Assembly (NCBI GenBank): GCA_965645245.1
Contig: OZ287068.1
Coordinates: 2,728,001 to 2,792,000 of the forward strand
Source: Massalongia carnosa
Lineage: Eukaryota
Direction: 5' to 3'
Length of the DNA: 64,000 bases
Positions 5,360 through 64,000 of the stretch are shown piece after piece (the stretch's first letter is position 1; the number at the start of each line of letters is the position of its first letter). The notes beneath the pieces are model-generated. The model saw only the letters and a list, made by a program, of their open reading frames with translations. It did no database searches and was not told where the DNA came from. The translations under genes were made by a program, and so were the position numbers.

Positions 5360-8300
5360 TTATCCAAGATGATCCGGTATGGACCTACTCTCAATCCCTG
5401 CCGCCTCGTCAACTTGCCCGTTTGCTTGATAAGCACCGGCGAGCTCATGCTGCGAAGCAAGCCAATCAGGATGATCTTCGGCCAGCTTTTCTTGAACCTT
5501 GACGACGTGCTCGAGCAGCTCGACGGCTTCATCAACTTGCCCGTTTGCTTGATAAGCACCGGCGAGCGCATGCTGCGAAGCAAGTCTGGAGGGATGATCT
5601 TCGGCCAGCTTTTTACGAACCTTGACGACGTGCTCGAGCAGCTCGACGGCTTCATCAACTTGCCCGTTTGCTTGATAAGCACCGGCGAGCTCATGCTGCG
5701 AAGCAAGTCGGGAGGGATGATCTTCGGCCAGCTTTTCTTGAACCTTGACGACGTGCTCGAGCAGCTCGACGGCTTCATCAACTTGCCCGTTTGCTTGATA
5801 AGCACCGGCGAGCTCATGCTGCGAAGCAAGTCGGGAGGGATGATCTTCGGCCAGCTTTTCTTCAACCTTGACGACGTGCTCGAGCAGCTCGACGGCTTCA
5901 TCAACTTGCCCGTTTGCTTGATAAGCACGAGCGAGCTCATGCTGCGAAGCAAGTCGGGAGGGATGATCTTCGGCCAGCTTTTCTTGAACCTTGACGACGT
6001 GCTCGAGCAGCTCGACGGCTTCATCAACTTGCCCGTTTGCTTGATAAGCACCGGCGAGCTCATGCTGCGAAGCAAGTCGGGAGGGATGATCTTCGGCCAG
6101 CTTTTCTTGAACCTTGACGACGTGCTCGAGCAGCTCGACGGCTTCATCAACTTGCCCGTTTGCTTGATAAGCACCGGCGAGCTCATGCTGCGAAGCAAGT
6201 CGGGAGGGATGATCTTCGGCCAGCTTTTCTTCAACCTTGACGACGTGCTCGAGCAGCTCGACGGCTTCATCAACTTGCCCGTTTGCTTGATAAGCACCGG
6301 CGAGCGCATGCTGCGAAGCAAGTCGGGAGGGATGATCTTCGGCCAGCTTTTCTTGAACCTTGACGACCTGCTCGAGCAGCTCGACGGCTTCATCAACTTG
6401 CCCGTTTGCTTGATAAGCACCGGCGAGCGTATGCTGCGAAGCAAGTCGGGAGGGATGATCTTCGGCCAGCTTTTTACGAACCTTGACGACGTGCTCGAGC
6501 AGCTCGACGGCTTCATCAACTTGCCCGTTTGCTTGATAAGCAGCGGCGAGCGCATGCTGCGAAGCAAGTCGGGAGGGATGATCTTCGGCCAGCTTTTTAC
6601 GAACCTTGACGACGTGCTCGAGCAGCTCGACGGCTTCATCAACTTGCCCGTTTGCTTGATAAGCACCGGCGAGCTCATGCTGCGAAGCAAGTCGGGAGGG
6701 ATGATCTTCGGCCAGCTTTTCTTGAACCTTGACGACGTGCTCGAGCAGCTCGACGGCTTCATCAACTTGCCCGTTTGCTTGATAAGCACCGGCGAGCGCA
6801 TGCTGCGAAGCAAGTCTGGAGGGATGATCTTCGGCCAGCTTTTTACGAACCTTGACGACGTGCTCGAGCAGCTCGACGGCTTCATCAACTTGCCCGTTTG
6901 CTTGATAAGCACCGGCGAGCGCATGCTGCGAAGCAAGTCGGGAGGGATGATCTTCGGCCAGCTTTTCTTGAACCTTGACGACGTGCTCGAGCAGCTCGAC
7001 GGCTTCATCAACTTGCCCGTTTGCTTGATAAGCACCGGCGAGCTCATGCTGCGAAGCAAGTCGGGAGGGATGATCTTCGGCCAGCTTTTCTTCAACCTTG
7101 ACGACGTGCTCGAGCAGCTCGACGGCTTCATCAACTTGCCCGTTTGCTTGATAAGCACCGGCGAGCTCATGCTGCGAAGCAAGTCGGTCAGGATGATCTT
7201 CGGCCAGCTTTTCTTCAACCTTGACGACGTGCTCGAGCAGCTCGACGGCTTCATCAACTTGCCCGTTTGCTTGATAAGCACCGGCGAGCTCATGCTGCGA
7301 AGCAAGTCGGGAGGGATGATCTTCGGCCAGCTTTTCTTCAACCTTGACGACGTGCTCGAGCAGCTCGACGGCTTCATCAACTTGCCCGTTTGCTTGATAA
7401 GCACCGGCGAGCTCATGCTGCGAAGCAAGTCGGGAGGGATGATCTTCGGCCAGCTTTTCTTCAACCTTGACGACGTGCTCGAGCAGCTCGACGGCTTCAT
7501 CAACTTGCCCGTTTGCTTGATAAGCACCGGCGAGCGCATGCTGCGAAGCAAGTCGGGAGGGATGATCTTCGGCCAGCTTTTTACGAACCTTGACGACGTG
7601 CTCGAGCAGCTCGACGGCTTCATCAACTTGCCCGTTTGCTTGATAAGCACCGGCGAGCTCATGCTGCGAAGCAAGCCTAGAGGAATTGTCTTCGGCCGAC
7701 GCTCGAGATCGACACTCGACAATGTTTCTGAAAACATTAACCGCCTCTTCATGTTTCCCCTGTTGCAATGATACTCGTCCAGCAAAAAGTTTGATTTGTA
7801 GTGCTACTTCCTGATCGGCTCTATATTTACTTTGCAGCCTCAAGCGGATGCGTTGAACAAGAAAAGCAAACGAGCTATCATTCATGGTATAGAGAACGTA
7901 CGCAAGTTGGAAAAGTATTTGAGCAGCTTCGATATCGGACATAGTCTGTGTGTATTCTTCGATTTCGTGGTTCACACAGGCTCGCACGTGAGGTAGGAGA
8001 AAGATAAAAAAAGGACAATAGGAGTACCATCCCTGACATGATAGCGCGACGATGGTCGCGGCTGACTGCCACGCTCTATATCGACTTTGATTGTCTTGCC
8101 GCTCTTTAGCCCATGCATGCACCAGAGAATGCGCGGTAATAGTGATAGAATCGTCATTCTCGTGCACGGTGATGATCGACAAAGATTCCAAGATTGTACA
8201 AGCTTTGCGCCATCGCAAGCGGTCTTGAAGCCTAGACCATCCCTGCTGAGCATATTCCGGCAGCCTCGCGACGTGACGCACGGATAAAGATAAGACTTCG

Positions 8301-10951
8301 TCGTCATTACTTGTCCCCGTCTCCTTGAGCTCGGAGGCATATTCAGAAGCTTTCCGAAATATCGTCTCAGAAATTCCACTGTTATGCATGAACGCAAGAG
8401 TATGAAGAAAGTTCAAAGAATTCAAATTCTCTGACAGTTTAGAGTTATGAAGATATTCTGCGGAAACCTCGAATGTCGTATACACATTGCGATACACTGA
8501 CAGGTTTTGCTTTGAGTGAAACTTCAGAAGCTGCCCTCTTTGCTGCTGAAAGATGATCGGATACTGCTCGAGAGTACACAACTTTTGCCTGATAAACGCG
8601 CCTGCTTGAATAATTGCAAGCGTATGTGATTCAAGGATTCTGACAACCGCCATAGCAGCTTTCTCTTTTTCCTTCCACCGAGTCTCTGTTATACAGCTAG
8701 CCCGGAGTAGGAGTTCCCGGGCAAGCTCAGGCTCGAGACCACTCAGCGTTTCACGTCCCACGGTGTTGTATGTAGCGCATTCTAGATTGCGTGTAGTGAG
8801 CAAGATATCGCCTCTCCTACTAGGTGGCATATATTCGGAGTAGTCAATTTCTAGATTATCAGCATTGTCGAGGATTAGAAGCCACCGTTGACTACTGCAG
8901 GCTAGCCATGACTTCACATTTTCAAGGGTCGGTTCAGTTACACCGCACCGTCGCCCTATCTCGATATATCCCTGCTCAGCCGTGGTGGTAGTCCTAACGT
9001 CAAGCCAGAAAACCCCCCAGTACCTAGCTTGTCAGCAGGATATCGGCAAGGCGTTTAATTTCACTTACTCGTCTCGATGATCTTCGGCAAACTTCAGACA
9101 GACTTCGCTCTTGCCTGTACCACCAATACCGATGATGACGAAAAGTCTTTGTTGTTTCGCAGGCTTCGAGACATCAAATGAAAGCACTTGAGCAAGGCGC
9201 TCCGCAATCTCTCCTCGTCCAGTATAGACACGGCTGGCGGAACGAGGCACCATCCATTGGCTGGCCGTTTTATAATCTGTGTACATTATATGGAGCTGTT
9301 AGGTGGTCACTGGTCTTGTAGTAAATCGAAGGTCTGCGTTCATAGCGGACAAGGGGGCTCAATATGTTATGAGATTACTGACCGGTGGAGTCTGACCACG
9401 CTGTTGTTTTGGGGTCTTGTAATGTGGGTCTCGGTTAGATTTGAAGCACGGTTAGCGGCGAGAGGACTGACTAAAGACTGCATTGTAGAAGTTTCCTTGG
9501 ACCACTTGGCTGGTCCGAGCATGACTGTCACCAAACTGATTCGAGACCTGCTCGGCCATCGTACCCGACGTCAGCCGTTTGCGGTCACCCATCTCGGTCC
9601 TTATGCCGGTCGAAGTATCTTCTCGCTGATCTATGACTTTATTCACCGCTGACAAAAACAAGAAGATCAGCTTTTGAGTATCTAAAAAACGAATTCAAGG
9701 CGAAGGAATCCTGAGCTCTCGACAACACCCACTAAAAGTGGTTGCGACGTCTTAAGTAAAATCACCGGGGGATATGAACAAAGACTCGAGCCTAACCTGA
9801 TTGTCGATCATTCCCCAATGTTCTGCGAACTGACTTTTCCCAGCGCTGAAGTTCACCTAGAATGGCGTCGTATCCGTGATCTTCTCGGTTTGAGAACTTT
9901 GTCATGTCCTATGATGATTAGCAAATAGAACAACCGATGACATCACCCGAATTACCATGTGATTTGCGTGAATGCCATAACAGCTATAGCCCCTAATCTC
10001 TGCCGAATGTAAAGGCACAATCTAGACGAATCAGGATCAACGTCTAGTGTGATTCATTGACATTCATACTTCTCCAACCCCTATAACACCAAGTTCTTCA
10101 TAGAAACATGTGATTGAGATCTCAGACCCTTCATCCTTCCTTAGTCTGAGGATGTTTTGAAATTCATTTCCCACCATGCGAAGCATTTCGGATCCTGGCT
10201 TCAATACTCCTACGATGTCTGAGTTTGAGCGTTTGAGGAGATTGATCATTCGTGTCCCGAAGCTTGCCCATGATGCTAAATCAGACCCACAATGCGGAAC
10301 TCCCAGAAAGACTATCCCAGCCGTGCAGCGCTCGATCTGACGAAGGAACTTATCTGCGGTATTCCTCGAATAGCCGAGAGCGTGCTCAATAACAAGTCCA
10401 CCCAGACTGTGAGCAATAAATAGAATCTTTCTGGCTTCTGAATTCGTTCTCTCTCGCTTTCGCACAAGATCGCCAACCATATTCTCAGCATGATTGCTCA
10501 GTCGACTGTTTGATGCTGGGTTCCAGAAATTGACGATATCTGCGTCATAGCCAAAGCTCAAAATGCGTGCATCCGGCAAGTCTTGTTTCAGAAGTTCGCT
10601 CGGCCAATGCATCCTTGTGCCCTTGTCCTTATGAAGCCAGGTGTTATACGCATTGCCCGTCAACCCGTGCACGAACACGATATCGACACTCGCCTCCACG
10701 CCACCATCGTACAGCACTTTGACGCCATAGTTCTGGCCTTCTCCGATGGGTGCTGGAGAAGCTTGTATATTTGTAGCAGTCGATGTCGGACCGATGATCG
10801 TCTGGGATAGTTGGACGGCTAGGTCTTGCGATTCGGCGGCTTGTGAGGAGGATCCGCAGGGCTGTTCAGGTATCGGCGGGGGAGGCGTCGGCAGTGATGA
10901 TTGCGACCTTGATTCTCTTGAGCGGAAAAGGCCTTTAAGCTTAAACGGCAT
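5360..10951 (-). CDS. Fungal NLR: SesB-like alpha/beta hydrolase + NB-ARC + TPR array (~1713 aa, 7 exons)
   Basis: Model 10951-10070, 10021-9956, 9908-9797, 9648-9472, 9415-9383, 9276-9069, 9023-5360 (all GT-AG, total 5142 nt, frame-consistent; exon 5 least certain). Hydrolase motifs FVHGLTG, AHSLGG, HANHMDMTKF; Walker A GIGGTGKS; WLLILDNAD; ILLTTRN; LAIIQAGAFI; HSLVHAW; 41-aa TPR repeats. Confidence 0.9.
5400..7680 (-). repeat. 123-bp tandem array encoding 18 full + 1 partial TPR units
   Basis: Unit SRLASQH[E/A/T]LAGAYQANGQVDEAVELLEHVVKV[RK/EE/QE]KLAEDHP; LASQH occurs 19 times. Confidence 0.97.
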
Positions 10952-12208
10952 CTCAATTCAAGACTTTGCGATCTTGTAGTTGGAAAAGTGTACGATCCAT
11001 CTAAGAAAAGAAATTCGCAGCTTTGTACTGCACCTTGGCGCAAGCAAGAAGAGGTAATACTCGTCTGATTGGCTAGACAAATCGATCAATAGCGCTTCAT
11101 TTATTCAACTATTGGCTCGAGACGTCTAAAAGGAGCTGACTCATCACGACAGTCATGGTAGCCTGCAGGGCTGAGCTAGAGCTAATGGGGTTAAGCGATT
11201 ATTCCAAGCATACGAAGGAGTTGAAAATGGTTTCCGCTATTGCTTTCGAAAGCTAGGCACAGATTTTGATCGAATACCATGCTCTGTGTGACACATCTTC
11301 ATAGACCGTTTTTTTGTTCTTCTCCTTTCTTTCTCCTTTCTCCTTTCTCCTTTCTCCTAATCTTTCTTCAATCCGGCGACTTCTTAATTCCCGGCTCTGT
11401 TCTTAACTCACCTATATTCCTCTCTAATTGCTCTTCTCAATATTATAAATGTGGTCGACGATTTATCTCTCTCATGAGCCAACATTATATGGAATACCGC
11501 GGTAACGGCTTCTATATCGAGAAAAGAGAGTGGATCAAAATTCCAGTGCATTGTTGCGATTGCATTTAGAAGAACTTATCCTCTTTGACAAGGAATTCCA
11601 GAAGGACTACAACGACGCCAGTCAGATAGAGATCATCAACTCCTACGCATATATATTTGGAAGGGGCTAGTGTCACTTGCAGTGATCGTTGTTTTGAGAT
11701 CAAGTTCCGTGAGCTACGACCCATATGGATGGTTGGAGGAAGCTAATTCAACAGCGGTAGGTGCCGAGGCAGCTGATGTAAAGTATCAGAAAGGGTCTAT
11801 GAACTAATTTGTCGATAATTATTTCTACGGGAGGAGCATTACTTGGCTTGTAGAGATTTTTCTTTGTCTCCTGAAATAGCTACTCCTAGACGCGGATTTA
11901 GTCTTATCACCATAGGGGATGGAAGTTTCGGATAAGGTGAACATATAAAATTCTCTATATTGTGTCAGAACGTTTCTCTGCTTGGGTTAGAATATATTTG
12001 CGGGACGGTAAGTGGACGAGAGAGAAGACGAGAGGGTGAACGAGAAGGAGGAGATATAGGTCTTCGTGGTGATGTTGGTGGTATTATACGATGCTGATGC
12101 GGGCGATGAGGGTGGCGGGTCAGAACATGAGACACGTGAAGTCGCTTAGCAATATTTAATCTAAGTGATCAGACATTTTCGAGCGGTTGCCCGATCGCAG
12201 CGACATCA
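9264..12208 (-). repeat. Left arm of large inverted duplication (matches 58639-64000)
   Basis: Identical 295-aa and 69-aa ORFs on opposite strands; left = 73264 - right across the coding part; homology ends at TGATGTCGCTG (12208 / 58639). Confidence 0.97.
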
Positions 12209-12898: not shown

Positions 12899-13144
12899 CT
12901 TACTTGGTTATGATTCACGCCGCTTGACTCGAATAACGATTGTGAAAGAATTGTCATGACTTGATCAAAGCGGACTGATCATAAAAAGAAACTTATGAGA
13001 AAGATTTAAAAAAAAAAATTTAAGAAGTAACTTGATTGATCTTCGATAATTATGCGCTTGAGAAATTCTTAAAAGAATCATTCTCCAAACTGTAACAGGG
13101 GTGGTAATAAGTCACCTAAGCCACTGAGCCAAAAGGCTACTATG

Positions 13145-14471
13145 CACGCGGGTGACAAAATAAATTGCAACGTGTAAGCGAATTTACCCCTGAATGCCCC
13201 ATCAAAACACCCTCCTTTCTTTCAACTTTTTATCTCATCATCAATGTCTCGACCCAAAAAGCCTCATTATGATACTCCCACAAAGGCCAAAGTTCAAGGA
13301 GCTTATCAATTTCTCATCTCACATGCAATTCCATTCGATCCACGGGCCATTTTTCAGGAATTTGGCGTGGCCGAGCGCGCGGGCTATAACATCATCAAAA
13401 GCGGAGCTTCTTCTCGCACACGTCACAATTCTTCTCTCGTTGAGACTCGGGGTCGAAAGCGAAAGATTAGTGATGATCAGCTGAAGGAGGCAGATCACAT
13501 TCTGCAGGATCAAGATCTACAATTGGAAGGAAAACGCTACACATGGGATGCTTTAGCACAGGAGATTGGGGCCGACGTGATGGGACGTACAATGAAGAGA
13601 ACTCTTAGAGCCGCCTTGAATTATCACAAATGTCTAGCCTGTGTCAAAGGGTGGCTGGCAATGGCATCAGAAGAAAGAAGAGAAGAATTTGCTACAGTTA
13701 TGTTAAATAAATATCCTCGGTCCGAAGACTGGCATCGCGTACGATTCAGCGATGAGATTCATTTTGGCTACGGGCCTGAAGGACAGTTACGAATCATTCG
13801 TAAGCCCGGAACAAGATATCGTTGGGATTGTATTCAGCATCGTGATGCACCACCTGAGAAAGATCGTAAAAGAAAGCACTGCTGGGCAGCAGTTGGTTAC
13901 AATTTCAAGTCGGATATCTACTTCTACGATGTGCCCAGCAATAGCAATGGAAAAATGACTCATCAGGTGTATATTGACGCTATTCTTGATCCCGTCGTCA
14001 AGCCCTGGTTGGAGCGTGGAGATGACTTCGTACTTGAAGAAGATGGAGACTCTGGTCATGGCACGGGCAAGAGACGAAACGCGGTCAAAAAGTGGAAGTT
14101 AGATCACGATTTAGAGCACTATTTCAATTGTTCTTCATCTCCTGATCTAGCTCCCATTGAAAATTGCTGGCAGCCCGCAAAGCAGCATGTTCGTAAATTT
14201 CCTCATTGGGACGATGCAAGTTTGGAGCAGCTGATTAGGGAGGGATGGGCTCGAGTCAGTCAGGAATTTATCAATGAAAGGGTGTTATCCATGCCCAAAA
14301 GATTGAAAGAGGTGAAAGATGCAAAGGGGGCGATGACTGGTTATTGATCTCATGTAATTTAGATGAATTTTATCAGCTATGCAGATGATGGTTGATGATG
14401 AGATGAAAATTTGAATAAAAAAGGGGGGGTAAATTCGCTTACACGTTGCAATTTATTTTGTCACCCGCGTG
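13145..14471 (+). mobile_element. IS630-Tc1-mariner-like DNA transposon (DD38E), intact, 46-bp TIRs, CTATG flanks
   Basis: TIR CACGCGGGTGACAAAATAAATTGCAACGTGTAAGCGAATTTACCCC at 13145-13190 and inverted at 14426-14471; CTATG at 13140-13144 and 14472-14476. Confidence 0.92.
13244..14347 (+). CDS. Tc1-like DDE transposase (367 aa)
   Basis: VRFSDE, CWAAVG, EEDGDSGHG, SPDLAPIENCW; 38 residues between second D and E. Confidence 0.92.
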   Translation: MSRPKKPHYDTPTKAKVQGAYQFLISHAIPFDPRAIFQEFGVAERAGYNIIKSGASSRTRHNSSLVETRGRKRKISDDQLKEADHILQDQDLQLEGKRYTWDALAQEIGADVMGRTMKRTLRAALNYHKCLACVKGWLAMASEERREEFATVMLNKYPRSEDWHRVRFSDEIHFGYGPEGQLRIIRKPGTRYRWDCIQHRDAPPEKDRKRKHCWAAVGYNFKSDIYFYDVPSNSNGKMTHQVYIDAILDPVVKPWLERGDDFVLEEDGDSGHGTGKRRNAVKKWKLDHDLEHYFNCSSSPDLAPIENCWQPAKQHVRKFPHWDDASLEQLIREGWARVSQEFINERVLSMPKRLKEVKDAKGAMTGY

Positions 14472-15411
14472 CTATGGTAGTTCTCCTATGGAGACACTAC
14501 CGCTTATTACACCACATAGGTGCCCCGCTCCCGGTACGTCACCGTACCTACTTAGGCGCTCATGTATTGCGCCTGCTGGCTAGCAGTACTGAGTGCCGCT
14601 GTAACACATGTGTCTTTCCTCGAAAGTTTGAACTATTCGCCGAGAAGCTGGCGGAACGGCGACTGATTTACTGATAATGACCACGGTCTGAGATGATTGT
14701 TCGTAAAATTGCATAGAGTTCATATTAACAAAAGGCATTATAGCTTCGTAAATGAAGAGGTAGTTGAGAATCGTAAGAGTTAAATAGAATATCAGGTAGA
14801 GAGAAGACTGCATGAAGTATTATAAACTGCCTAGCGCGCCAAGGCTCGCAGGGCTGCGCTACACCTATAAAGGGGGTGGAGGATAATTTACTTTCTTTCT
14901 CGAATGAGGAAATGTAAAAATATCAAGAAAACAGTGTACAACAAATCCTCAAAATATGATGATCCTTCAACGCTACAATTATCGTATTATCAATTAATTC
15001 TCCGACTTCTCTAAAGTGTGAACAACTACTCAACCTAAGCCTTGCTTAAGTTATTTAATGGTAGCCGCTAACAAGTACCGACTTCCGTCTCATGAAGCTT
15101 GTCTCTAGCTTTCAGTCGTGTGCGTTCTTCCCTTAGCAGGTGCGACTATGTGGCTTCAAGGTGAATATAGCATGAAGTCCTTCGAAGCTGGCGATAATGT
15201 GCTGGTTAGCACTTATCCTCTATTCGGAATCCTCGGCTTGTTGCATAACCACCCAATCTGTGACTCTGGTCGGGCGATTTTATAAAAAGGCTAGTACTTT
15301 CCCAACTTCTCTCAAGCTCTTACTATCTCTGAAAAATATCTATTTCTCCTCAATCTGATCCAGATACTTTTGCCCCCCAAACAGTTGCTCCAGGTTTCTC
15401 CGCTTCGCAGC

Positions 15412-46475: not shown

Positions 46476-47218
46476 GCTGGTGCCTTTGCAATAGAGTGGA
46501 TGAGAGTATGTATGGCCCCTGCGTAAACTCTTGACGGCGACGGAACAAATGAGTGGCGCTTAAGTCAATCTGATAGCCGAAAAAGATCCCTGCTCATCGG
46601 CTAAATCTCGAACGATTTCGTCATCATTCGCCGGCACTTGCCTATCTCCTAAACCTACTCTGTGTCCGAATCAGATATGATTGGCCATCATACTCGTAAT
46701 ACGAGGACGTTTATGTCATTGCCTACCCCACCATTCCATCTCAACAATCATACAGAGTATTCGGACTAGCCGACGATTAGTAATAACTAACAAAGCCTTT
46801 CATTCATCTCATCGCCTTCACCCGCCTTCAAAATCAGGCCCGATTGTCCTTGTGAAAAACAGTGAAACAAAACCTTCGGTTCACCACTCCGACTGGCTGT
46901 TTCGAGTGATTGATATTTAGGGAGTCGCTGATGGTACAACGGCGAGGATGGGGCGAAGGCCTTTGTTTTCCTTATAGGTAGCGGGGCACGCGGGGCCAAA
47001 AAAAGTTCCCACACCAAAATTTCACCCACCCTAAAAATCCTTCTTTACCCAACTCCCTCATCATGAATAATCACTATTATACACGACTATATGCAACAAA
47101 AATCGCTCAATGTCCTGTCATTTTACCCTCTCCATCTAGCACATCATGCATGCGTTGTGGCATTTGTTCTACTAACGAATTGATCCATTCCTGGGGAACG
47201 TGATCCCTCCACTCTGTA

Positions 47219-49407
47219 CGGGATTTCCCGGTGAAACGCCGAACCCGGTGAGAACGCCGAAATTTCTAAATTTCGGCACTTTGCTATTTTTTGCTACCAT
47301 GCGACAACCACCACGATTGATACACTGAAGCTTTGGTAAATTGTACATAGAAGGTGTCCAATTTGATGTATAGAAGAAAAATTCTATTCGCCAAAATGAT
47401 TTGGCTTTCGCACCTCTCTCCCCCTAGATGTACGAGAAATTATCATTTCCACTCCACCAACCACCTCGACATCATCACTTTGCTCCTGGGACTGCTTTCG
47501 ACACTTTGGCACCTGCTTTGGCCCTGTAGATGTCGATTTCAACCTCAGCGATAATTCAGAAGGCTTAGTACTTGCGTTTTTCAATTCTTTTTGGGCCTGC
47601 TTTTCGACCGCTTTAGACTGCCTCGCCTCCTCGATCAATCGTTTTTTTTCTATAGCAACTAGGGCCCGTTCTTGCTTTTCTTTTTCCTTCAGCGACTTGT
47701 TAAAAACTAATTGTGCCCGTTTTTCAGCGAGATCCTGTTGCCGTCGTGTCTTTTCGTCATCTTTTGAAGCCTGATAGGCTCTGGCCGCTGCCACCCTACC
47801 CGGACTGAAAAATTGAGGCCCAGAATCTTCTTCACCTAGCAAATTCAGGCGTTTACCACGTTTTCGTCGTTTCTTTTCCTCTTTAAGTGCCTCACATAGG
47901 CCCCTAATTACGTGTTGATCAATAGAACGATTAGCTGCGAGACGCTCATTTGCAGCAAATATCTTGGACAACAAAACTCTATTTGGCTCTTTTACGTAGG
48001 TTTTTTGTATGCGACGAACCGCCCGTCCCGTCATAGGTGTCTTGGGTGCTTGTGTGACGTTAGGTATCTCCTCTGGTGAAGGCGATTTGGTGATTTTATC
48101 TAGTAGGATGTTTGGATTGTACGGCCATATGCCTGTCTTCTCAAACCCAGAGTTTATGTTCTTTTCATTGAAGGCCTTCTGCCAGGCAGGCCAAAAAACA
48201 CCCCAGAAGACTCTTTTTGATATGTTCACTGTGCCCAATGAGTTAAACATCATATCATTGAGGCCATTCGTATAATACCGGGCCAGGGGGGCAAACAATG
48301 AAACATCTAGGGGTTGCAACCGGTGCGTAGTATGCGATGGTAGAATCATCAATAGAATTCGTAGTTCATCGCATTTATTGATGAATTTCATATTGACGTG
48401 GCTAGAATGACCATCCACCACCAGCAACCGCCTTCTATGCCCCATTTGCTTCGTACATCGTTCAAAAACACGCTCAAGCCAGTTCAGACCAAGCAGGTCA
48501 CAACTCCATCCATTGGAAGAGACCGCGAAGAAAGCTTGCTGATCTACACTCCAATCTTCTAACCATGTATCTTGAAGTGTCTTTGAATCGCCTCTATAGA
48601 TCAGCGCGGGTGGTAAAGCGGTACCGTTTGCGCATATGCAAGCCAGTAGACTGATGAATTCACGACTTCCATCTTGACTCGCATGGGTTATGCGCCCCGA
48701 TTCTAGAGCTTCAAGAGTCATTATTCGCTTTACGGCAGAGGCCATGCCAATTAAAAAGCCCTTTTCGTCCCAATTATAGACGTTATCTGCTGTGATGTTA
48801 TATTTTTCGATGCCCGCGATCAACTAGAAGAAATGTTGACTATTAGGCACAAATGCGACGCAATTAGGGGCAGTTATATTGTCAAAACTACGGACCTGAT
48901 CATAGAATTGTTTGAATGTAGGTGCATACTCAGACTTTATGCGTAGACTGTCCATGTTGCGTAAATATAGACTTTTAAGTCTATCTTGATTTCGCTTAGT
49001 GAATTCTCCCGCCCAGTTCCTACCTACTGACGACTGGATCATTTCTTCTGCCAAATTGCGCACAATTGTAGGGGTAGGAGGTATTCCTCTGTCGGTTAAT
49101 CGATTGATTTGTGAGATTAGAGCCTCTTCTTGGACCGTTGTGAGGCGTTGCTTATGTGTGGATGAAGCCTCCCGTCGGGAGACCGATTGGCCTTTCCATC
49201 GCCGCCGAAGAGTACTTTCGACTAGGCCAAATTTCTTAGCAGTTGCAAGTATATTTGGTCGCTCTTGCGATTCTAAATTAGCAATTGCTTGGTCAATTGG
49301 CGCGGTGGTAGTAGTGTTATTCATGGTTGAAGAGGGTAAGGTGGTGCGGAGTAATTTTCTAAAATTCGGCGTTGTCACCGGGTTCGGCGTTTCACCGGGA
49401 AATCCCG
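47219..49407 (-). mobile_element. Fot1/pogo-family DNA transposon, TA TSD
   Basis: TIR CGGGATTTCCCGGTGAAACGCCGAACCCGGTGA at both ends; TA at 47217-18 and 49408-09. Confidence 0.92.
47384..49324 (-). CDS. pogo/Fot1 transposase (HTH + DDE_1), one intron
   Basis: HTH region, VYNWDEKGF, LLVVDGHSSH, HRLQPLDV; intron ~48896-48824. Confidence 0.88.
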
Positions 49408-50231
49408 TACGAATTGCATCTAAAGTGGTCTCATCGTCCCAATGATCCGATTTTTGATAACCACTGCTTGACGGGCTGCCAGCAGTTTTCAATGATGGAC
49501 AAATCGGGAGATTTTGGGGCGTTGAAGTAGTACTTTAACCCGTTTTCTTCCTTCCATTTCCGTACGATGTTGTTATTGTTGGCTGAACCATGCCCCGAAT
49601 CACCATCTTCCTCCAAAACAAATCGTTCACTCATCTCGAGACACGGCTTTACAATAGGCTCCAAAATGGAGTCTATATAGACTCTTTGACTCATCTTTCC
49701 ATTGGTGTTTCCAGGAACCTCGTAAAAAATCAGATCTGATTTGTAATTCCATCCCACCCACGCCCAGCAATGAAAACGCTTTTGTACTCTTTCTTCGGGC
49801 TCTTTCCCCTCCTGCATGCAGTCAAAACAATATCTTTGACCCGGTCGACGTATAATGCGCAATCGGCGTTGAGGACCAAGCCCGAAATGAACTTCATCGC
49901 TGAAACGAACCAACTTCCAGTCCTCCAATGTCCAAGTGGTGATTTTATCTCGTGCAAAAGTACGTCTTAAAGCACGAAGATGAGGAGCAATCCAGGTCCT
50001 CGTACAAGCGATGCATTTGTGATATTCCAAGTCCTGCATAGTATTTCTGATGGTGTGCCAATGCACTCGATTACTGCCCACGAGGCCTACTTCTTTGGCC
50101 AGTTGATGCCAGGACATAGCTCGAGCTTGAATACCTCCATTTTCAATTATTTCCTCCAGTCTCTTGTACGCCGCGGAATGGGTTGGGTTGGGTTGGGTTG
50201 GGTTATCGTTGGGTTACCCAACAGAAAAAGG

Positions 50232-50300
50232 TACTGATATATGGACACCCCATCCGCTACCTAGACTCTAGGTAGCGGATAGGGTGTCCATATATCAGTA
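50232..50300. mobile_element. TIR-only hairpin micro-element inside the hAT end
   Basis: TACTGATATATGGACACCC.ATCCGCTACCTAGA-C-TCTAGGTAGCGGAT.GGGTGTCCATATATCAGTA near-perfect palindrome. Confidence 0.7.
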
Positions 50301-50783
50301 CCCACAGAAAAAATATGTGATGACTACTAGCATGGCTACCACAAAACACGAATGCAATATTTATCACATGAGTTAGGATTTTCAATCATTGTAGATTTAT
50401 TTTAATGACTATCACAAAGTAAAATGTAGATTATAGATAAAACATTTATTTCGTTGACGTCGAACTACCATAAAGACTATCACAAATTCATATGCTATCT
50501 TCTATCGAATATCGAAGTATGTCGCCCATTCATCGCTTCCTATTCAAAACTCGTAAAGAAAGTCTCTCGCCATCTCTTCCTTTACTCTCCACCTTCTTGT
50601 CACCCCCACCCTCTCCACCCCCCTCCTCTACCTCATCCTCCACCACACCCTCCTCCTCCTCCTCCTCTACCTCATCCTCCACCACACCCTCCTCCTCCTC
50701 CTCCTCCACCTCATCCACTATACCCTCGTCCTCCTCCTCCTCCTCCACCTCATCCACCACACCATCCTCTATCATACCCTCCT

Positions 50784-53496
50784 TCACCTCCTCGCTTGAT
50801 GGAAGCCTACCCCTTCTTGTGCGCGTTGCAATCCTCTTATTCCTATCGCGTTGCTCGGAAATGGAGTTTCTGTTATTGTAAGTTCGTTTCTTACTTTTCT
50901 GTAGAATAATTAGCTCAAGAAGACACGAAAGTAAGTGACTCGATGCTTACATCTCGCGCTGAGACCTGCTCAACCTGCGATGACCCGATCTGCGTTAACT
51001 GGTCCTCGTCATTGTTATCGTCTTCTTCATCACTAATGTAGACCTTCTGAAAAACCTGTGTTAGGTCTTCATGTCGCCTTTGCATCTCATTAGTCAAATC
51101 CTCAAGACTCATGCTTTCTTCTTCTTCCAAATCTACGTGTAAACTTGCATCTGCATTCTCCTTCTGATCGTAGAAACGAACCATCATCATCGCGGAGAAT
51201 GTATCCGGATAAAAATTCTTGCGATGATCGTAAAGGGCTCCCGCAACGCTAAAAACGCGCTCACATCCAACGCCAGCGGCTGGTACAGCAAGGATGTCCC
51301 TGGCAACCATACTCATTTGTGGAAATTCCGGCTCGAGATCTTTCCACTGTTGTAGAATAGGACCCGAACGATCATGCATCGCTGTGTATTGTAAATAAGT
51401 TGAACACAATGAGAACAGATCTGATTTATTGTATCAGTTAACCTACATCGCTGACGATAGCAGTTGAACTCGTCATCTAGAGCGAGCGGAGTAGCATTAT
51501 TCGTACTCAGAAGAAGATCCAGATTATTCAAGTCTCGAATGACCGCGACATTACGCCCGCGTACTTGTGAGGTTTGAGAATTCTCGTAGATATCGAATTC
51601 CGCTTCCAGAGATTGCCAATATTGATCTTCCCATCGACTTTCCCTATAGGGCGCATCCCAATTGGGACCCTTGAAAATTAGGTCCTTCTTATTGGGAGAT
51701 AGCAATGCCGCCTTTCCATATAGATAACCTAATGACCCCTGAGTTTTAGAATAGTATTGACGTAATTTCGTTGCAGCCGCCTCGATGCCATTCAATAGCG
51801 CACGTTTCCACGATACTCGCTTACGAGATAATCTTGCGCGAGCTTGATCCAGATGATCGAACAGCTTATTGTAGATCTCGAACACCTGATGAATGGTCGG
51901 TTGCTTTGATTGACCAATCATCTTTGTGAAGACGCAGAATAGCTTCGTTAAATCGATAAGATATTCTATCTGTGACCATTCCACGTCGAGCAATCTCAAA
52001 TACTCGGCTTCATGTTTATCATGATATCTATTCAGCGCTTGTCGCAACTTGAGCGCTCGAATTAACATGTGACATGTGGAGTCCCATCGAGTATTTACAT
52101 CTTGAAAAAGGTTAAGTACTGTACCGCTGACCGAGTTTCCAGTGCGTCTCTCTTCGTCATTCAATGCTCGTTGAACAGCGTAGAAGTTCTCCTTACGTAA
52201 ATTGCTACTGTTAATGTAAACAGCTAATGCTCGAACCTAATCGAAATTTAGAACGACTACCACAACGACTACCACAAAATAAATCTTGCCTTAGCTAGCG
52301 TAAGGGGAACTCCAGGTGTCGGGTTTTCGAAATCCCGTCTATCTTGCTTATCATCCCAGCTAGTTTTGAAATCGGCATTTTTGGGATTAATGTGAATACA
52401 CCCAAGTAGCTGTTTCACGGCAAGTTGAATTACATGCGATAAACAAGGCACTCGCTGTATCTCATTAGCATCAGTGTGTAGAAGTGCCAAGGCTCGATTG
52501 CTTCGTATCATTCGTCGCAACTCATCTACCATCGTTGTGTTATTAGATGCACTGTCCGTGGTTAATGCCAAAACACGATCTTCAATAGAATGTCTAATTA
52601 AAACGCTGTCCAATACTTCAGCAAGTTTTATTCCCGTGTGTGAGCCTTCAACGTGTTCGAAGGCAAGAAGCACTTCGTGATAATTCCATTTATCGTCAAT
52701 GAAGTAAGCATTGATGGCCAGATAACCTTGACGATTAAATGACGACCAACAATCCAAAGCCAGAGAGACCTTTGAACTACCCCTAGGTAGCCTCTCGAGC
52801 AAAAGCGGAATAATCTCTTGACTTCGGGTCATCAAGCGATTCTTGATTGTCGATGGTGAAGGAAACTGTACATTATCGAGCAGACAGTTGAACGCTCTTT
52901 GCAATTCGACATTGGCGACACTTCGTAACGGTAGCCCAAGAGCAACAATCATACGAAGCATTTGAGGCGTGAAATCATCCTTTTTTAGTCTACGCCCATT
53001 GAGAGTTAAGGCCTCTTGTCTTTTTGCTTCAATCTAATATTGATTAGCAAAGCACGTAATGTGGTAGTCATTGTGGTAGTCATACTTCGGCACGATATCC
53101 AACCTTTAAGGAAAGTTGCTTCATTCCTTTCAATGTCGACGTCTTTTTACAGGACTCGGAATTTATGTGATTAGTCATGCAGTTATTTCCGGAGCCCAGT
53201 GAGGGATGATTCAAGACCAGGGAGCATCGCGAGCAGATTATTTTGGGATTACCATCGCCCACAGTGGCGCCTTCCTGAAACTCTTTCCATTCCGCCGCCT
53301 TTCTTTTGGTCGATCCCCAATCGATCTTCTTCATCGCCTTTCTACTCTTCTCTTCATTAGCAAAATGCCATCTCGTACTTCGCCACCATTCCATAAACTC
53401 CTCGCTCTTCTCGGCCACATATGCGTAGCATCTGGTGGGTTTGCCCACAACTTGAAGATCGTATATCTCTGAATCTATCATCTGCGAGCTGCTCAT
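50784..53496 (-). CDS. hAT transposase (BED-like Zn finger, DDE core, dimerisation domain), multi-exon
   Basis: CSRC...H, LALDCWSS, TTDSASNN, CLSHVIQL, TRWDST, ILAVPAAGVGCERVFS. Confidence 0.88.
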
Positions 53497-54650
53497 TGTT
53501 GCGAATGACGAGGATTGTATATATAGGAATGTATATATAGGATGTAACAGTAGGAATGTAGCTGTAGGAATGTAACTTCATTGACTAGATTATGCTGCGA
53601 TAAAGCATTAATAACTACGTTTACGTTCTAAACACTCAGTCAAATCCAACGCATGCATACATATTCCACCTAAACTAGCCAACCAAACCTAGTCATACTG
53701 AACCTAACCATACCCAACCTAACCTAGTTGCCACGCGCGACCACTGATAACCTGTTTGCTTTTAGATATGGCACCGAAGACTCCGCGCAAGCGTACGCGC
53801 AAACCTGCGCGAATTCCAAACCGAACACTCGATAGAATACCCAGACCAGGTGCCAGAACTGGTGCGATAAGAAAACCAACCACCAGGAAGAGTATGCCTG
53901 GTGGTAAGTAGATGGTATAGTTGAGAATACATAAGATACTAACGCCGATCGCCACGTTGATAAGTCAAGGTCCATTACTAAGCATGTGATTTGGGTAACC
54001 CAATGAAAACCCAACCCGAACCCAACCCAACCCAACAATAACCCAACCCGAACCCAACCCATCATTGGGTTGGGTTCTTTACGTGAGAACCCAACCTAAC
54101 CCATCCCATTCCGCGGCGTAGTCTCTTGAGAGTCTCCCAATCAATCGCTTTTTTTCTACCTCGAGTCTCTGGCCAGACCGAAGTTGTGATGAAATCGACG
54201 AGATGATTCGCCCCGAAGCATGGCATAACCGCTCGTTCGTTCCACGCCGAAATGACGAAAAACGTCTTCTTTAAAATAGAGAATTTTATGAGCATCATTA
54301 AATTCAACAACAGCTTGAACTTTAGCTTTTATGGGCGTAGAATACTCCTGATTACAGTTATGATCATCAAAATCAGGTGTACTAGAACGATTAATTGATG
54401 ATTGATTATTCATAATGAGGGAGTTGGGTAAAAGAAGGATTTTTAGGGTGGGTGAAATTTTTGGTGTGGGAACTTTTTTTGGCCCCGCGTGCGGGGTAGG
54501 TAAACAATGGCATAAAAGTCCCGGTTTTCTACTCTGTACGGAGTACGGAGGTTGACACGAAAAGTCCTTGGTAGCGTGCATTAGTGCTGTTTTAGCGTCA
54601 TGCAGAAAGAACGCTAACAATTCAATAGGGGTTTCTTATACACTTTGACC

Positions 54651-54739
54651 TAACCGTGCGACCGAGGTAAATCCGATGGACCGCACCTGGAGCGTAGCTC
54701 CGGGTGCGGTCCATCGGATTTACCTCGGTCGCACGGTTA
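54651..54739. mobile_element. TIR-only hairpin micro-element in the Tc1 5' region
   Basis: TAACCGTGCGACCGAGGTAAATCCGATGGACCGCACC...GGTGCGGTCCATCGGATTTACCTCGGTCGCACGGTTA near-perfect palindrome. Confidence 0.75.
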
Positions 54740-58171: not shown

Positions 58172-59492
58172 GTTGAAGGAGTTTGGGGAGGATGACGGGG
58201 AAGGGAAAAGAGTCCATACAAAGGGTCATGAAGTTATAAGCCACGATAGTGATTTGTCACTTTCTACGGCGAACTGTTGAACGAATAGTCATATATTTGG
58301 AATCCTCATCACAACCTTTGTACTAGAAAGGTTCGCCTCCTGCAACGGATTTCTTTGAAGCTCTCTCCTGCCACTTTGACTCCTACCTCAGGATACAGTA
58401 AGCGCAGAGGCCTTCCTAAAGACTAATGTATTTTACTCTAAGACGCCTGCCTCCCAACAAGGGAGGTCAATCATTTGTTCGCAACGAACAAAATTAACGC
58501 AAGTCAATAATTCTAAACCTACATTCTCTTCGTTCATTTTACTTGGATGCTGCTTGTGGGTCATGAAAAGCCTGCCAGGGATGGCTGCTCAACTCCCAGA
58601 GTTGAGCAGCGAATCCATGGGAAACGCGGGTATCCTCATGATGTCGCTGAGATCGGGCAACCGCTCGAAAATGTCTGATCACTTAGATCAAATACTGCTA
58701 AGCGACTTCACATGTCTCATGTTCTGACCCGCCACCCTCATCGCCCGCATCAGCATCGTACCACCAACATCACCACGAAGACCTATATCTCCTCCTTCTC
58801 GTTCACCCTCTCGTCTTCCCTCTCGTCCACTTACCGTCCCGCAAATATACTCTAACCCAAGCAGAGAAACGTTCTGACACAATATAGAGAATTATATATG
58901 TTCACCTTATCCGAAACTTCCATCCCCTATGGTGATACGACTAAATCCGCGTCTAGGAGTAGCTATTTCAGGAGACAAAGAAAAATCTCTGCAAGCCAAG
59001 TAATGCTCCTCCCGTAGAAATAATTATCGACAAATTAGTTCATAGACCCTTTCTGATACTTTACATCAGCTGCCTCGGCACCTACCGCTGTTAAATTAGC
59101 TTCGTCCAACCATCTCATATGGGTACGGAACTTGATCTCAAAACAACGATCACTGCAAGTGACACTAGTCCCTTCCAAATATATATGCGTAGGAGTTGAT
59201 GACCTCTATCTGACTAGCGTCGTTGTAGTCCTTCTGCAATTCCTTGTCAAAGAGGATAAGTTCTTCTAAATGCAATCGCAACAATGCACTGGAATTTTGA
59301 TCCACTCTCTTTTCTCGATATAGAAGCCGTAACCGCGGTATTCCATATAATTTTGGCTCATGAGAGAGATAAATCGTGGACCACATTTTATAATATTGAG
59401 AAGAGCAATTAGAGAGGAATATAGGTGTTGAATATCCAATTCCTACTACAGTACAATGAACATACGGCTGCCCTAGATGGACAGATCATCTA

Positions 59493-61712
59493 CAGAGGCG
59501 AATCTCAAAAGTAATGATAATACGCTAAAAGCTAGTGCCGTAATTTAAATTTTCCGTACCGAGCAAATTTTCCCCTTTTCTTTCCCCTTTTCTCATCCCA
59601 AATCATTTACGAACCAACATTTGATCAAATCATCATCATGGTCAATAAATCAGCTGATATTTCTTTGCGGGCTCAGGTCTTGACGTTGTCTTATTGCACC
59701 CCGGCCTCAATTGAATTTATTGCAGCTACTACAGGATATTCTGTCCCCAACATTTATCGTATTCGTCGCATTGCCAGGGATCGAGGATTTGATCCCGCCA
59801 TTTCTTTGCAGGTGCTTGATAAATACGCCCGTCATGAAGAAAAATCTGGTCGACCGAGAAAGGCTACTACTGAGAAAGAAGATGAAGTCATTGATCTAGT
59901 CATAAAAGACAGATACGCCCGTGAAAAAACCAGTGCCCAGTTGGCAAGAGAAGTTGGACTGTCCAGATGCACCGTGTGGAGAATCCTGAAACAAAGAGGC
60001 TATAAAAAAGTCAAACCGTCGTATAGACCAAGGCTTAGTCCTGAAACGAAAGCGGCTAGACTGGCTTTTTGTCTCCTGTATAAAGACTGGACCGTGGAGG
60101 ATTGGAAGCGGATTATTTGGTCAGATGAAACAGCAATAGTGCTTGGTCACCGTCGCGGAGCTGTCAAAATTTGGCGTACAACCAAGGAAGGAAGGAGACC
60201 AGTCAAATCCACCGTACGTGCCAGGTGGCATGGGGCTCATGAATTCATGTTTTGGGGATGCTTTTCCTACGATTGGAAGGGGCCATGTCATTGCTGGAAA
60301 CCGGAGACAAAAGCGGAAAAAGCGGAAGCCAAAACCAAGCTTGACGAGATGAATGCTGCATTGGAAGCCAGTGAGAGATTAAATTGGGAGCTGACCAATG
60401 GAATGAGACGTCTTTCAACTCGCAATTTACCAGGAAAAAAGCCGCAATGGAAATGGGATGAGGAACATGGAAAGATGATCAGAAAAGAAGGTAAAGGAGG
60501 CATTGATTGGTGGCGGTATCAAAACGTCATACTTCTGCCAAAACTGATTCCTTTTGCTCAGCAATGCAATGCAAAAAGAAGAGAAGCCGGATTGTCTGAA
60601 ATGATCGTACAGGAAGATAAGGCTCCGTCTCATGCTTCCAAGCATCAGATTCCCATCTTCTCTCGTCATGGCATCGAGCGTCTTTTATGGCCCGGAAATT
60701 CTCCTGATCTCAACATGATTGAACCCTGCTGGCCCTGGATGAAGCGACGTACAACTGCCAAAGGTCCTCCTAGTTCTCGGTTAATTGCTGAATCTATGTG
60801 GCATCGCACTTGGGACGATCTACCTCAGGAGAATATTCAGGCATGGATTGAAAGAATTCCACGTCACATTGCAAAAGTCATTGAATTGGAAGGTGGAAAT
60901 GAGTATTGCGAAGGACGTTTTTTTTTACATATTGAATTGTTTATTCAATTGTTGTTTAATTTAAACCATTTGGACGTTGATGGACGGACCAAAGAAGGAA
61001 AAATGCGACTTCAACAGCTGAGGGAAGAATTGCTCAGTAATACAGCAAAACCAGCTTCTTCTTCTTCTTCTTCTTCTTCTTCTTCTGTGGCGTCAACGAG
61101 ACCATCATCTAGACAATCTGTCAAATGTCAGCTATACTGGCATTAACCAACATTGGTCAACGGGCCCGTCACATGCCCGTCACATGACATTGCCACCGCG
61201 GCACAGGTAAAAATTCTTCATCCCCCACATTCTTTCTTCCTTCGGAGACATCTCTTGATCTATCCCCTGGCGGCATACCTAGCTAGAAAATCATCTATAG
61301 ATCAATGCCATTCATTTCACCTCATCTGGTCAAGACGTAAATCATCTCAACTGATCATCAGGGCAAAAAGCCTCAGACAATCAAATGATGATACACCCAG
61401 CCCGTTGAATGTCAGGGCAGTTACCCCTGAGCCCGTTGAATATCAGGGCAGTTACCCCTGAGCCCCCTACACAGAAGCCATTGACACCCCCCTTATTGAG
61501 AAAAAGAGCCGTTTTATCTCCGAAAAATCACCTTCCCCCACGCATTCAAAAGGTGGTTCGTACTGCAGCCAGTTTCAGACCAAAAAGACGTTGATTAGAT
61601 GGTTAGTAATGGCATTTGTAGATAGTTGGTAGAATTTCAGGCTCGGTATGGAAAATCTAAATTACGGCGCTAGTCTTTAGCGTATTATCATTACTTTTGA
61701 GATTCGCCTCCG
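59493..61712 (+). mobile_element. Tc1-like (DD34E) transposon, ~72-bp imperfect TIRs, TA TSD
   Basis: CAGAGGCGAATCTCAAAAGTAATGATAATACGCTAAA... versus ...TTTAGCGTATTATCATTACTTTTGAGATTCGCCTCCG; TA flanks. Confidence 0.92.
59638..61146 (+). CDS. Tc1-like transposase DD34E (502 aa)
   Basis: IWSDET, MFWGCF, QEDKAPSH, WPGNSPDLNMIE; related to the 54785 transposase. Confidence 0.9.
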   Translation: MVNKSADISLRAQVLTLSYCTPASIEFIAATTGYSVPNIYRIRRIARDRGFDPAISLQVLDKYARHEEKSGRPRKATTEKEDEVIDLVIKDRYAREKTSAQLAREVGLSRCTVWRILKQRGYKKVKPSYRPRLSPETKAARLAFCLLYKDWTVEDWKRIIWSDETAIVLGHRRGAVKIWRTTKEGRRPVKSTVRARWHGAHEFMFWGCFSYDWKGPCHCWKPETKAEKAEAKTKLDEMNAALEASERLNWELTNGMRRLSTRNLPGKKPQWKWDEEHGKMIRKEGKGGIDWWRYQNVILLPKLIPFAQQCNAKRREAGLSEMIVQEDKAPSHASKHQIPIFSRHGIERLLWPGNSPDLNMIEPCWPWMKRRTTAKGPPSSRLIAESMWHRTWDDLPQENIQAWIERIPRHIAKVIELEGGNEYCEGRFFLHIELFIQLLFNLNHLDVDGRTKEGKMRLQQLREELLSNTAKPASSSSSSSSSSVASTRPSSRQSVKCQLYWH

Positions 61713-62312
61713 TACGGAAACCGTAGATGCCGCATTAGGCTTAGTCCCAAGATAATATAAGATCGCCTCGCTTAGAAGGGGTGACCAGTAATAGGAAAAG
61801 ATTGCTGCCTAGCAACTCTACCTTTATTATTACATAGCCATATAGCCATAGTCATATACCTATTTCAACAATAGGTGAGTTAAGAACAGAGCCGGGAATT
61901 AAGAAGTCGCCGGATTGAAGAAAGATTAGGAGAAAGGAGAAAGAAAGGAGAAGAACAAAAAAACGGTCTATGAAGATGTGTCACACAGAGCATGGTATTC
62001 GAGCAAAATCTGTGCCTAGCTTTCGAAAGCAATAGCTTTTCAACTCCTTCGTATGCTTGGAATAATCGCTTAACCCCATTAGCTCTAGCTCAGCCCTGCA
62101 GGCTACCATGACTGTCGTGATGAGTCAGCTCCTTTTAGACGTCTCGAGCCAATAGTTGAATAAATGAAGCGCTATTGATCGATTTGTCTAGCCAATCAGA
62201 CGAGTATTACCTCTTCTTGCTTGCGCCAAGGTGCAGTACAAAGCTGCGAATTTCTTTTCTTAGATGGATCGTACACTTTTCCAACTACAAGATCGCAAAG
62301 TCTTGAATTGAG

Positions 62313-64000
62313 ATGCCGTTTAAGCTTAAAGGCCTTTTCCGCTCAAGAGAATCAAGGTCGCAATCATCACTGCCGACGCCTCCCCCGCCGATACCTGAAC
62401 AGCCCTGCGGATCCTCCTCACAAGCCGCCGAATCGCAAGACCTAGCCGTCCAACTATCCCAGACGATCATCGGTCCGACATCGACTGCTACAAATATACA
62501 AGCTTCTCCAGCACCCATCGGAGAAGGCCAGAACTATGGCGTCAAAGTGCTGTACGATGGTGGCGTGGAGGCGAGTGTCGATATCGTGTTCGTGCACGGG
62601 TTGACGGGCAATGCGTATAACACCTGGCTTCATAAGGACAAGGGCACAAGGATGCATTGGCCGAGCGAACTTCTGAAACAAGACTTGCCGGATGCACGCA
62701 TTTTGAGCTTTGGCTATGACGCAGATATCGTCAATTTCTGGAACCCAGCATCAAACAGTCGACTGAGCAATCATGCTGAGAATATGGTTGGCGATCTTGT
62801 GCGAAAGCGAGAGAGAACGAATTCAGAAGCCAGAAAGATTCTATTTATTGCTCACAGTCTGGGTGGACTTGTTATTGAGCACGCTCTCGGCTATTCGAGG
62901 AATACCGCAGATAAGTTCCTTCGTCAGATCGAGCGCTGCACGGCTGGGATAGTCTTTCTGGGAGTTCCGCATTGTGGGTCTGATTTAGCATCATGGGCAA
63001 GCTTCGGGACACGAATGATCAATCTCCTCAAACGCTCAAACTCAGACATCGTAGGAGTATTGAAGCCAGGATCCGAAATGCTTCGCATGGTGGGAAATGA
63101 ATTTCAAAACATCCTCAGACTAAGGAAGGATGAAGGGTCTGAGATCTCAATCACATGTTTCTATGAAGAACTTGGTGTTATAGGGGTTGGAGAAGTATGA
63201 ATGTCAATGAATCACACTAGACGTTGATCCTGATTCGTCTAGATTGTGCCTTTACATTCGGCAGAGATTAGGGGTTATAGCTGTTATGGCATTCACGCAA
63301 ATCACATGGTAATTCGGGTGATGTCATCGGTTGTTCTATTTGCTAATCATCATAGGACATGACAAAGTTCTCAAACCGAGAAGATCACGGATACGACGCC
63401 ATTCTAGGTGAACTTCAGCGCTGGGAAAAGTCAGTTCGCAGAGCATTGGGGAATGATCGACAATCAGGTCAGGCTCGAGTCTTTGTTCATATCCCCCGGT
63501 GATTTTACTTAAGACGTCGCAACCACTTTTAGTGGGTGTTGTCGAGAGCTCAGGATTCCTTCGCCTTGAATTCGTTTTTTAGATACTCAAAAGCTGATCT
63601 TCTTGTTTTTGTCAGCGGTGAATAAAGTCATAGATCAGCGAGAAGATACTTCGACCGGCATAAGGACCGAGATGGGTGACCGCAAACGGCTGACGTCGGG
63701 TACGATGGCCGAGCAGGTCTCGAATCAGTTTGGTGACAGTCATGCTCGGACCAGCCAAGTGGTCCAAGGAAACTTCTACAATGCAGTCTTTAGTCAGTCC
63801 TCTCGCCGCTAACGGTGCTTCAAATCTAACCGAGACCCACATTACAAGACCCCAAAACAACAGCGTGGTCAGACTCCACCGGTCAGTAATCTCATAACAT
63901 ATTGAGCCCCCTTGTCCGCTATGAACGCAGACCTTCGATTTACTACAAGACCAGTGACCACCTAACAGCTCCATATAATGTACACAGATTATAAAACGGC
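62313..64000 (+). CDS. Second copy of SesB-NB-ARC(-TPR?) NLR, truncated by the window end
   Basis: Exons 62313-63194, 63243-63308, 63356-63467, 63616-63792, 63849-63881, 63988-; exon 1 protein is identical to the left copy. Confidence 0.88.

Follow-up and report, generated by a model that had tools for sequence, protein, structure and literature searches.

A clade of Tc1-like transposons in ascomycete fungi with 5-bp target site duplications in place of TA

The window, that is, the whole 64,000-nucleotide stretch of Massalongia carnosa DNA analysed here, is rich in transposable elements and belongs to a fungal genome assembly of 52 Mb in 25 contigs. It contains a Tc1-like transposon of 1,327 bp (positions 13145-14471) whose ends start CACGCGGG. 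The left terminal inverted repeat (TIR), 46 bp long and starting CACGCGGGTGACAAAA, lies at 13145-13190 on the forward strand, and the right TIR, also of 46 bp and perfect, at 14426-14471 on the reverse strand. Between them, an intact forward-strand ORF (13244-14347) encodes a Tc1-like transposase of 367 aa with D170, D267 and E306 as catalytic triad. The element thereby has the single ORF between TIRs and a length within the 1.3-2.4 kb typical of IS630/Tc1/mariner (ITm) elements, and its transposase matches Pfam DDE_3. On the forward strand, CTATG can be read on both sides (13140-13144 and 14472-14476) as a 5-bp target site duplication, with no TA at the junction, as an earlier note made from the sequence alone had claimed. 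The perfect inverted repeat around the element spans 47 nt (13144-13190 and 14426-14472); the TIR is nevertheless 46 bp and not 47, because the outermost G/C pair is part of the duplicated target. The neighbouring DNA is present in one sequencing run labelled lichen metagenome.

Another family of the clade, F4, is represented on the reverse strand at 46987-54491 by an element of ~1,350 bp, split by two nested elements. The earlier note had described it as a relative with the same termini and CGGGG flanks, and indeed its ends are CACGCGGG and CGGGG is found on both sides (46982-46986 and 54492-54496). Its three pieces share 99% identity with an intact copy elsewhere in the genome, and its transposase fragment is 52% identical to the focal transposase over 223 aa. 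One of the nested elements, of pogo type (47219-49407, reverse strand, Pfam DDE_1), has TA on both sides and serves as an internal control. The other (50167-54120, reverse strand) has TIRs and an 8-bp duplication; judged by the duplication length, it is a putative hAT element. Besides the two clade members, the window has three Tc1/pogo elements, and these have TA at both boundaries, again as previously claimed. The window also holds a long inverted duplication (9264-12208 and 58639-64000), 97-100% identical, which carries a gene for an alpha/beta-hydrolase-like N-terminus. Next to its left copy is a long ORF with TPR repeats (5360-8830), giving an NLR-like layout recognised by eye, and its right copy is broken by a Tc1 element at 59491-61714. 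Hairpins, both near-perfect, lie at 54651-54739 (43 bp) and 50230-50302 (36 bp), the former overlapping the start of a Tc1 ORF.

A DNA search of the own genome, in which 40 of 249 candidates were scored, retrieved at least 37 near-full-length copies of the focal element with 97-100% identity. Protein and DNA searches, followed by fetching of the matching stretches, yielded a first set of 83 end pairs, which a 90% cut-off sorts into eight families. A perfect 5-bp duplication was present in 65 of the 83 (26/32 in F1, 20/20 in F2, 6/10 in F3, 6/8 in F4, 3/7 in F5, where one row is a mis-pairing, 1/3 in F6, 2/2 in F7 and 1/1 in F8). When the flank partners of these 83 elements were shuffled 1,000 times, five-base matches averaged 1.1 and reached 6 at most, so the 65 observed duplications cannot be attributed to chance. 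Exact matches to the TIR pattern number 390 in the genome, compared with 1 for the reversed control, and 16 extra loci picked from such matches provided ten more perfect duplications, two of which belong to the two MITEs examined, of 256 and 262 bp. In the own genome, at least eight families plus MITEs carry the clade's ends.

Once the mis-paired F5 row and one duplicate were left out, the final set comprised 97 distinct elements, which are a sample and not all copies. Perfect 5-bp duplications flank 74 of them, five have one mismatch and 18 fall into neither category. The earlier note had proposed tabulating the flanks of other copies: they are duplicated, and TA is duplicated in none of the 97. 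Flank matches of 3 and 4 bp were found in one and two elements, respectively, and matches of 6-9 bp in none. F1 copies have a median divergence of 0.45% from the family majority sequence and 17 out of 32 retain an open frame of at least 360 aa, indicating that activity is recent. Three copies (L004, L005 and L006; G000 C14:223967, C13:577095 and C13:562704) lack a duplication of their own and have flanks in common: the right flank of L004 is shared with the left of L005, and the right 5-mer of L005 with the left of L006, which suggests rearrangements or composite transposition between copies. Another locus (L317, G000 C4:228464-232709) spans 4,246 bp, with the clade's ends, a 665-codon open frame and flanks that match over 4 bp only. 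At L249 (1157-5967), a third Tc1 copy lies between two in inverted orientation; the whole unit measures 4.8 kb and its arms 1.3 kb.

The focal element is inserted into a 187-bp multicopy host repeat with TGT...ACA ends (13091-14607 including the insertion, forward strand), which we read as a solo LTR. Fourteen uninterrupted copies of this repeat contain the 5-mer once, as CTATG in 12 and as CTATA in two. In contigs of the public runs X1, X4 and X5, position 13139 is joined directly to 14472, skipping 1,332 bases, that is, 1,327 plus 5, with 5 ambiguous letters, and the same joint is present in run X2 with 4 ambiguous letters. Given that the target is a multicopy repeat, these joints do not amount to an orthologous empty allele; the coverage of the focal element in run X1 is only patchy and carries no evidential weight. 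For 15 of the 65 insertions, the fetched loci included an uninterrupted paralogous site, with no more than 2 mismatches over 29 bases, in which the 5-mer occurs once; it was doubled in none. As copies of repeats, these empty sites are paralogous, and none is proven to be an orthologous allele. Solo copies of the 187-bp repeat are flanked by 5-bp duplications. The repeat is also found in pairs, within TRIM-like units of ~590 bp built as LTR - 218 bp - LTR, which have a 5-bp duplication of their own (L220 1041-1633 and L223 1040-1632, both on the minus strand).

The 65 perfect duplications represent 56 different 5-mers with a GC content of 64%. The commonest first base is C, the commonest last base is G, and the symmetrised centre is S C W G S. 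Outside the duplication, T at -3 or A at +3 was observed in 85 of 128 half-sites (background ~0.28, p 1e-19) and A at -2 or T at +2 in 78 of 128 (background ~0.28, p 6e-15). The dinucleotide TA occupies -3/-2 or +2/+3 in 42 out of 64 distinct sites, and both in seven, although these sites are not fully independent because a few insertions share one repeat target. TA is therefore favoured nearby, yet outside the duplicated part. As read from the insertion sites, the target preference is palindromic, a loose 11-bp quasi-palindrome of the form TA-N-[S C W G S]-N-TA.

Two geometries had been put forward in the earlier note, a 5-bp CNNNG duplication and a 3-bp duplication with GCACGCGG termini. The latter, similar to the geometry of Zator or Tc4, fits both copies in the window, each with G before and C after the element. 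Among the 65 insertions, however, only 42% have G immediately before CACGCGG and 54% have C immediately after the element, and the five bases are all duplicated regardless of their identity, as in copies such as L007 (CCAGT), L011 (AGAGC) and L115 (CCCGA), which contradict a 3-bp duplication. A 3-bp match without offset, the duplication length of Zator, was found in 1 of the 97 elements, compared with 74 for 5 bp, and we consider the chance that this geometry is correct to be practically nil. As for the 5-bp alternative, the length holds and the fixed CNNNG target does not. Even though C and G are the commonest outer bases, CNNNG fits only 13 of the 65 duplications; a fixed target of this kind is very improbable and survives only as part of the loose preference described above.

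The focal protein is a DDE/D transposase of IS630/Tc1/mariner type, in agreement with the earlier claim of an intact Tc1-type transposase. A profile search against solved structures returned Sleeping Beauty (SB) as the sole sequence match (E=1.3e-19), and the best fold matches of its AlphaFold model (pLDDT 77) were Mos1 and SB. An NCBIfam IS630 match (E=7.8e-17) was below that model's cut-off. Catalytic-region trees were computed from own-genome and homologue rows, without named references, one with 54 rows (nine short rows dropped) and one with 31 (long and redundant rows dropped). The 5-bp-duplicating elements form a single clade, with support of 100/99 in the two trees, which lies among own-genome elements of DD34E type that duplicate TA. 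Eighteen other Tc1-like elements of this genome, selected through their TIR pattern, all duplicate TA, and the TIRs of the clade are in register with those of the TA-type Tc1 elements (A-run, positions 13-16). The earlier suggestion of a distinct lineage with a different cut geometry is supported. Its DD38E label, in contrast, holds for the focal copy and does not define the lineage: in the 132 homologues with both motifs, the D-to-E spacing is 37 in 65, 38 in 44 and between 36 and 46 in the rest, rather than the 34 residues of Tc1 (DD34E).

The sister of the clade is an own-genome family (L278-L295, TIR CAAGGTTGGGTGAC), with support of 98/93 and 99/96, at a node where long branches meet. It resembles the clade in its related TIR core, an insertion after the second aspartate and a spacing of 41. 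Unlike the clade, it retains the WPP motif, and its ten distinct two-ended copies comprise five with TA, two with TT and three assigned to neither, with a 5-mer in none. TT is duplicated instead of TA in copies L279 and L281. Loci L226-L238 are multi-copy DDE_3 elements, two of which were placed in a tree group with a cyanobacterial IS630-like protein; an inverted-repeat search at these loci did not find the ends of most of them.

Within the clade, FNC precedes SPDL in 99 of the 132 homologues, and WPxxSPD was found in 2 of 278 fetched proteins; WP before SPDL is retained in the TA controls and in the sister family. Loss of WP before SPDL appears to be the cleanest correlate of the duplication change, and it is a correlation only. 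The SB stretch containing P247 and K248 aligns to S270 and G271, followed by a glycine-rich insertion of 3-7 residues. This insertion after the second aspartate was rejected as a sufficient cause, given that the sister family with 2-bp duplications has it too, and so was serine at D+3, which is also found in one TA family.

The clade extends beyond the own genome. We retrieved 333 homologues of the focal protein at E<=0.001 among 1,835 candidates, and those with names come from Pyrenophora, Bimuria, Clathrospora, Ophiobolus, Botrytis and Orbilia, as protein matches. Relatives are multi-copy in Pyrenophora tritici-repentis and Botrytis deweyae. In one cluster (P0065), P. tritici-repentis members of the clade are annotated as 'HMG box protein'. 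A profile search of 50%-identity clusters returned 455 representatives at E<=1e-30, a count that is not limited to the clade. From metagenomes, the best 80 of 367 related stretches were kept, giving 30 distinct loci with rule-called ends and both flanks. A perfect 5-mer was present in 17 and TA in none; at the other 13, the called ends are not flanked by a perfect 5-mer, and two of these match at 6 and 7 bp. The 5-mer was seen by eye at two further loci (L136 and L138). Metagenomic ends read CACGCGG, CAAGCGG, CAAGTGG or CTCGCGG, with the A-run near positions 13-16 in all. Two divergent single-copy metagenome relatives (L161 and L153), with ends CAAGGCC and CTCCATC, have flank matches of 7 bp and 6 bp, which could be further length shifts or chance. 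A metagenome scan using a single protein found no relative, whereas one using an alignment did. No relative was found in the viral contigs searched, and the prokaryote genomes searched contained 12 loci with a best-segment identity of 23-39%, none belonging to the clade. Some of these look like eukaryotic contamination of MAGs.

We consider it highly probable that the focal element is an autonomous, recently active cut-and-paste transposon from a widespread ascomycete clade in the Tc1 branch, in which the 2-nt stagger at TA has become a 5-nt stagger. The sequences themselves display the 5-bp duplication, the single 5-mer at empty sites and the target preference, in a monophyletic group with a Tc1/mariner fold; under established DDE chemistry, the two strand transfers would fall 5 nt apart. 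The transposase would bind the short Tc1-like TIRs and excise the element, with a presumed donor nick in the non-transferred strand, probably 2 nt inside the end as in Tc1. The two 3' ends would be joined to target phosphates 5 nt apart, instead of 2 nt across TA, and gap repair of the stagger would produce the 5-bp duplication with no need for a fixed dinucleotide. The enzyme prefers targets whose centre, S C W G S, is rich in G and C, with TA one base outside on either side.

Tc1 excision leaves 2 nt of the element end in the donor flanks. In four of the 18 imperfect cases, the 5-mer is accompanied by exactly CA on the left or TG on the right, which are also the bases that end the element, and a fifth case fits; shuffles yielded 0.76 offset matches of any kind. 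Two copies (L059 and L305) read 5-mer + CA + element + 5-mer, another two (L008 and L318) read 5-mer + element + TG + 5-mer, and L310 fits with TG(A). These bases hint that donor flanks keep 2 nt after excision, followed by templated refilling, and that donor cutting is Tc1-like. The best candidate for the determinant of the shift may be the change from WP(P/S)xSPDL to FNCxxSPDL, together with the glycine-rich segment after the second aspartate. According to the available portions of the corresponding papers, Mos1 reads TA via flipped adenines in sharply bent target DNA (PMC5481204), and SB target choice is shaped by H187, P247 and K248 (PMC8934666).

TA duplication is given as one defining trait of the ITm group in the available part of PMC7325037. 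The sections available of other papers state that ITm elements in general duplicate TA and Zator 3 bp (PMC10045372), that Fot and Fot-like pogo elements duplicate TAA or TAAA (PMC7386202), and that fungal Tc1/mariner tools use TA (PMC13728883, 2026). A 5-bp group is not mentioned in the portions available of PMC7325037, PMC5630946, PMC5751038 and PMC11544213. The clade motifs had no match in six supplements of PMC7325037, which exclude its sequence files, and matched only unrelated papers in literature text. In papers on fission yeast, Pyrenophora teres, Mycosphaerella and REPCLASS, the passages available mention 5 bp in connection with LTR elements or with repeats that have no assignment. Two MITE families in the Mycosphaerella rows, which are given there without TIR sequences, have duplications of 5-6 bp and no transposase assigned to them. 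The literature searched, from which most subscription journals, Repbase Reports and Dfam were outside scope, contained in its accessible parts no description of a 5-bp-duplicating Tc1-like family. The clade may nonetheless sit in published trees or catalogues, labelled or unlabelled.

These elements might instead constitute a separate ITm superfamily, or be kin of 5-bp duplicators such as Transib, with no shift inside Tc1. Their CAC termini and GC-rich 5-bp duplications may resemble those of Transib, and the stem branch of the clade is long in trees built without named references. Arguing for Tc1 are the DDE_3 match, SB as the only solved-structure sequence match, Mos1 and SB as top folds, the position of the clade among TA-duplicating DD34E-type elements next to a sister with 2-bp duplications, and TIRs in register with the TA-type Tc1 elements of the same genome. 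No RAG1 family appeared in the Pfam scan and neither RAG nor Transib among the fold matches listed, and Transib is reported absent from fungi (available part of PMC5751038). An origin outside Tc1 is improbable. A stagger shift within Tc1 could also belong to a family already catalogued in Repbase, Dfam or a genome paper, which concerns novelty and not mechanism. In favour of this, relatives are multi-copy in sequenced fungi, P. tritici-repentis and B. deweyae among them, and hAT5 and hAT6 were named in Repbase Reports on similar evidence, according to the available part of PMC12730594. On the other hand, the literature searched held no description, and reviews up to 2026 give, in the sections available, TA for Tc1/mariner, with TAA/TAAA pogo and 3-bp Zator as exceptions. 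Prior cataloguing is a real possibility that we hold to be short of probable. On balance, we lean towards an undescribed, widespread ascomycete family derived from Tc1, which lost TA recognition and passed from a 2-nt to a 5-nt stagger in one tree step, keeping Tc1-type ends and donor cleavage.

If this is true, the clade and its sister, with 2-bp duplications that are TT in places, would provide a pair for mapping by swaps the residues that govern stagger length and TA specificity, and a natural before-and-after pair for the evolution of duplication length. A whole clade with a 5-bp stagger at GC-rich sites would imply that the Tc1 fold can be re-geared. Annotation filters requiring TA will mis-bound or miss its elements and MITEs. 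Being compact, fungal and loose in its choice of GC-leaning targets, such an element could also complement TA-limited mutagenesis tools in laboratory fungi.

The element is real and works like a Tc1 transposon, and it falls outside the family as delimited by TA and DD34E. Like the Tc1 family (DD34E, SB), the clade has a single ORF of ~360 aa in ~1.3 kb, short TIRs with an initial C, the motifs FSDE and SPDLxPIE, and the same fold. It differs in its variable 5-bp duplication as opposed to TA, its spacing of 37-41, EEDGDSGHG in place of the QHDNDPKH of Tc1/SB, and FNCxxSPDL in place of WPSQSPDL. Impala, a fungal Tc1 element of similar size, duplicates TA. Its DD37E signature, according to the available part of PMC7325037, corresponds to the commonest spacing in the clade. 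The Intruder family (DD38E/IT) shares the spacing of 38 with the focal copy; in the portion available of PMC7731502, it is restricted to animals and follows the TA rule, whereas the clade is fungal, with variable spacing and a 5-bp duplication, so by the spacing trait the clade is not the animal DD38E Intruder family. Zator and the Fot and Fot-like pogo elements (TAA/TAAA) are likewise ITm elements with non-TA duplications (PMC10045372 and PMC7386202, in the parts available), but theirs are AT-rich, of 3-4 bp and associated with DDE_1, in contrast to variable duplications of 5 bp with 64% GC and DDE_3. Finally, hAT5, hAT6 and hAT7 offer a precedent, also for naming, of a sub-clade that changes duplication length within a superfamily (available part of PMC12730594), although their transposase is unrelated and hAT elements had no fixed dinucleotide to lose.
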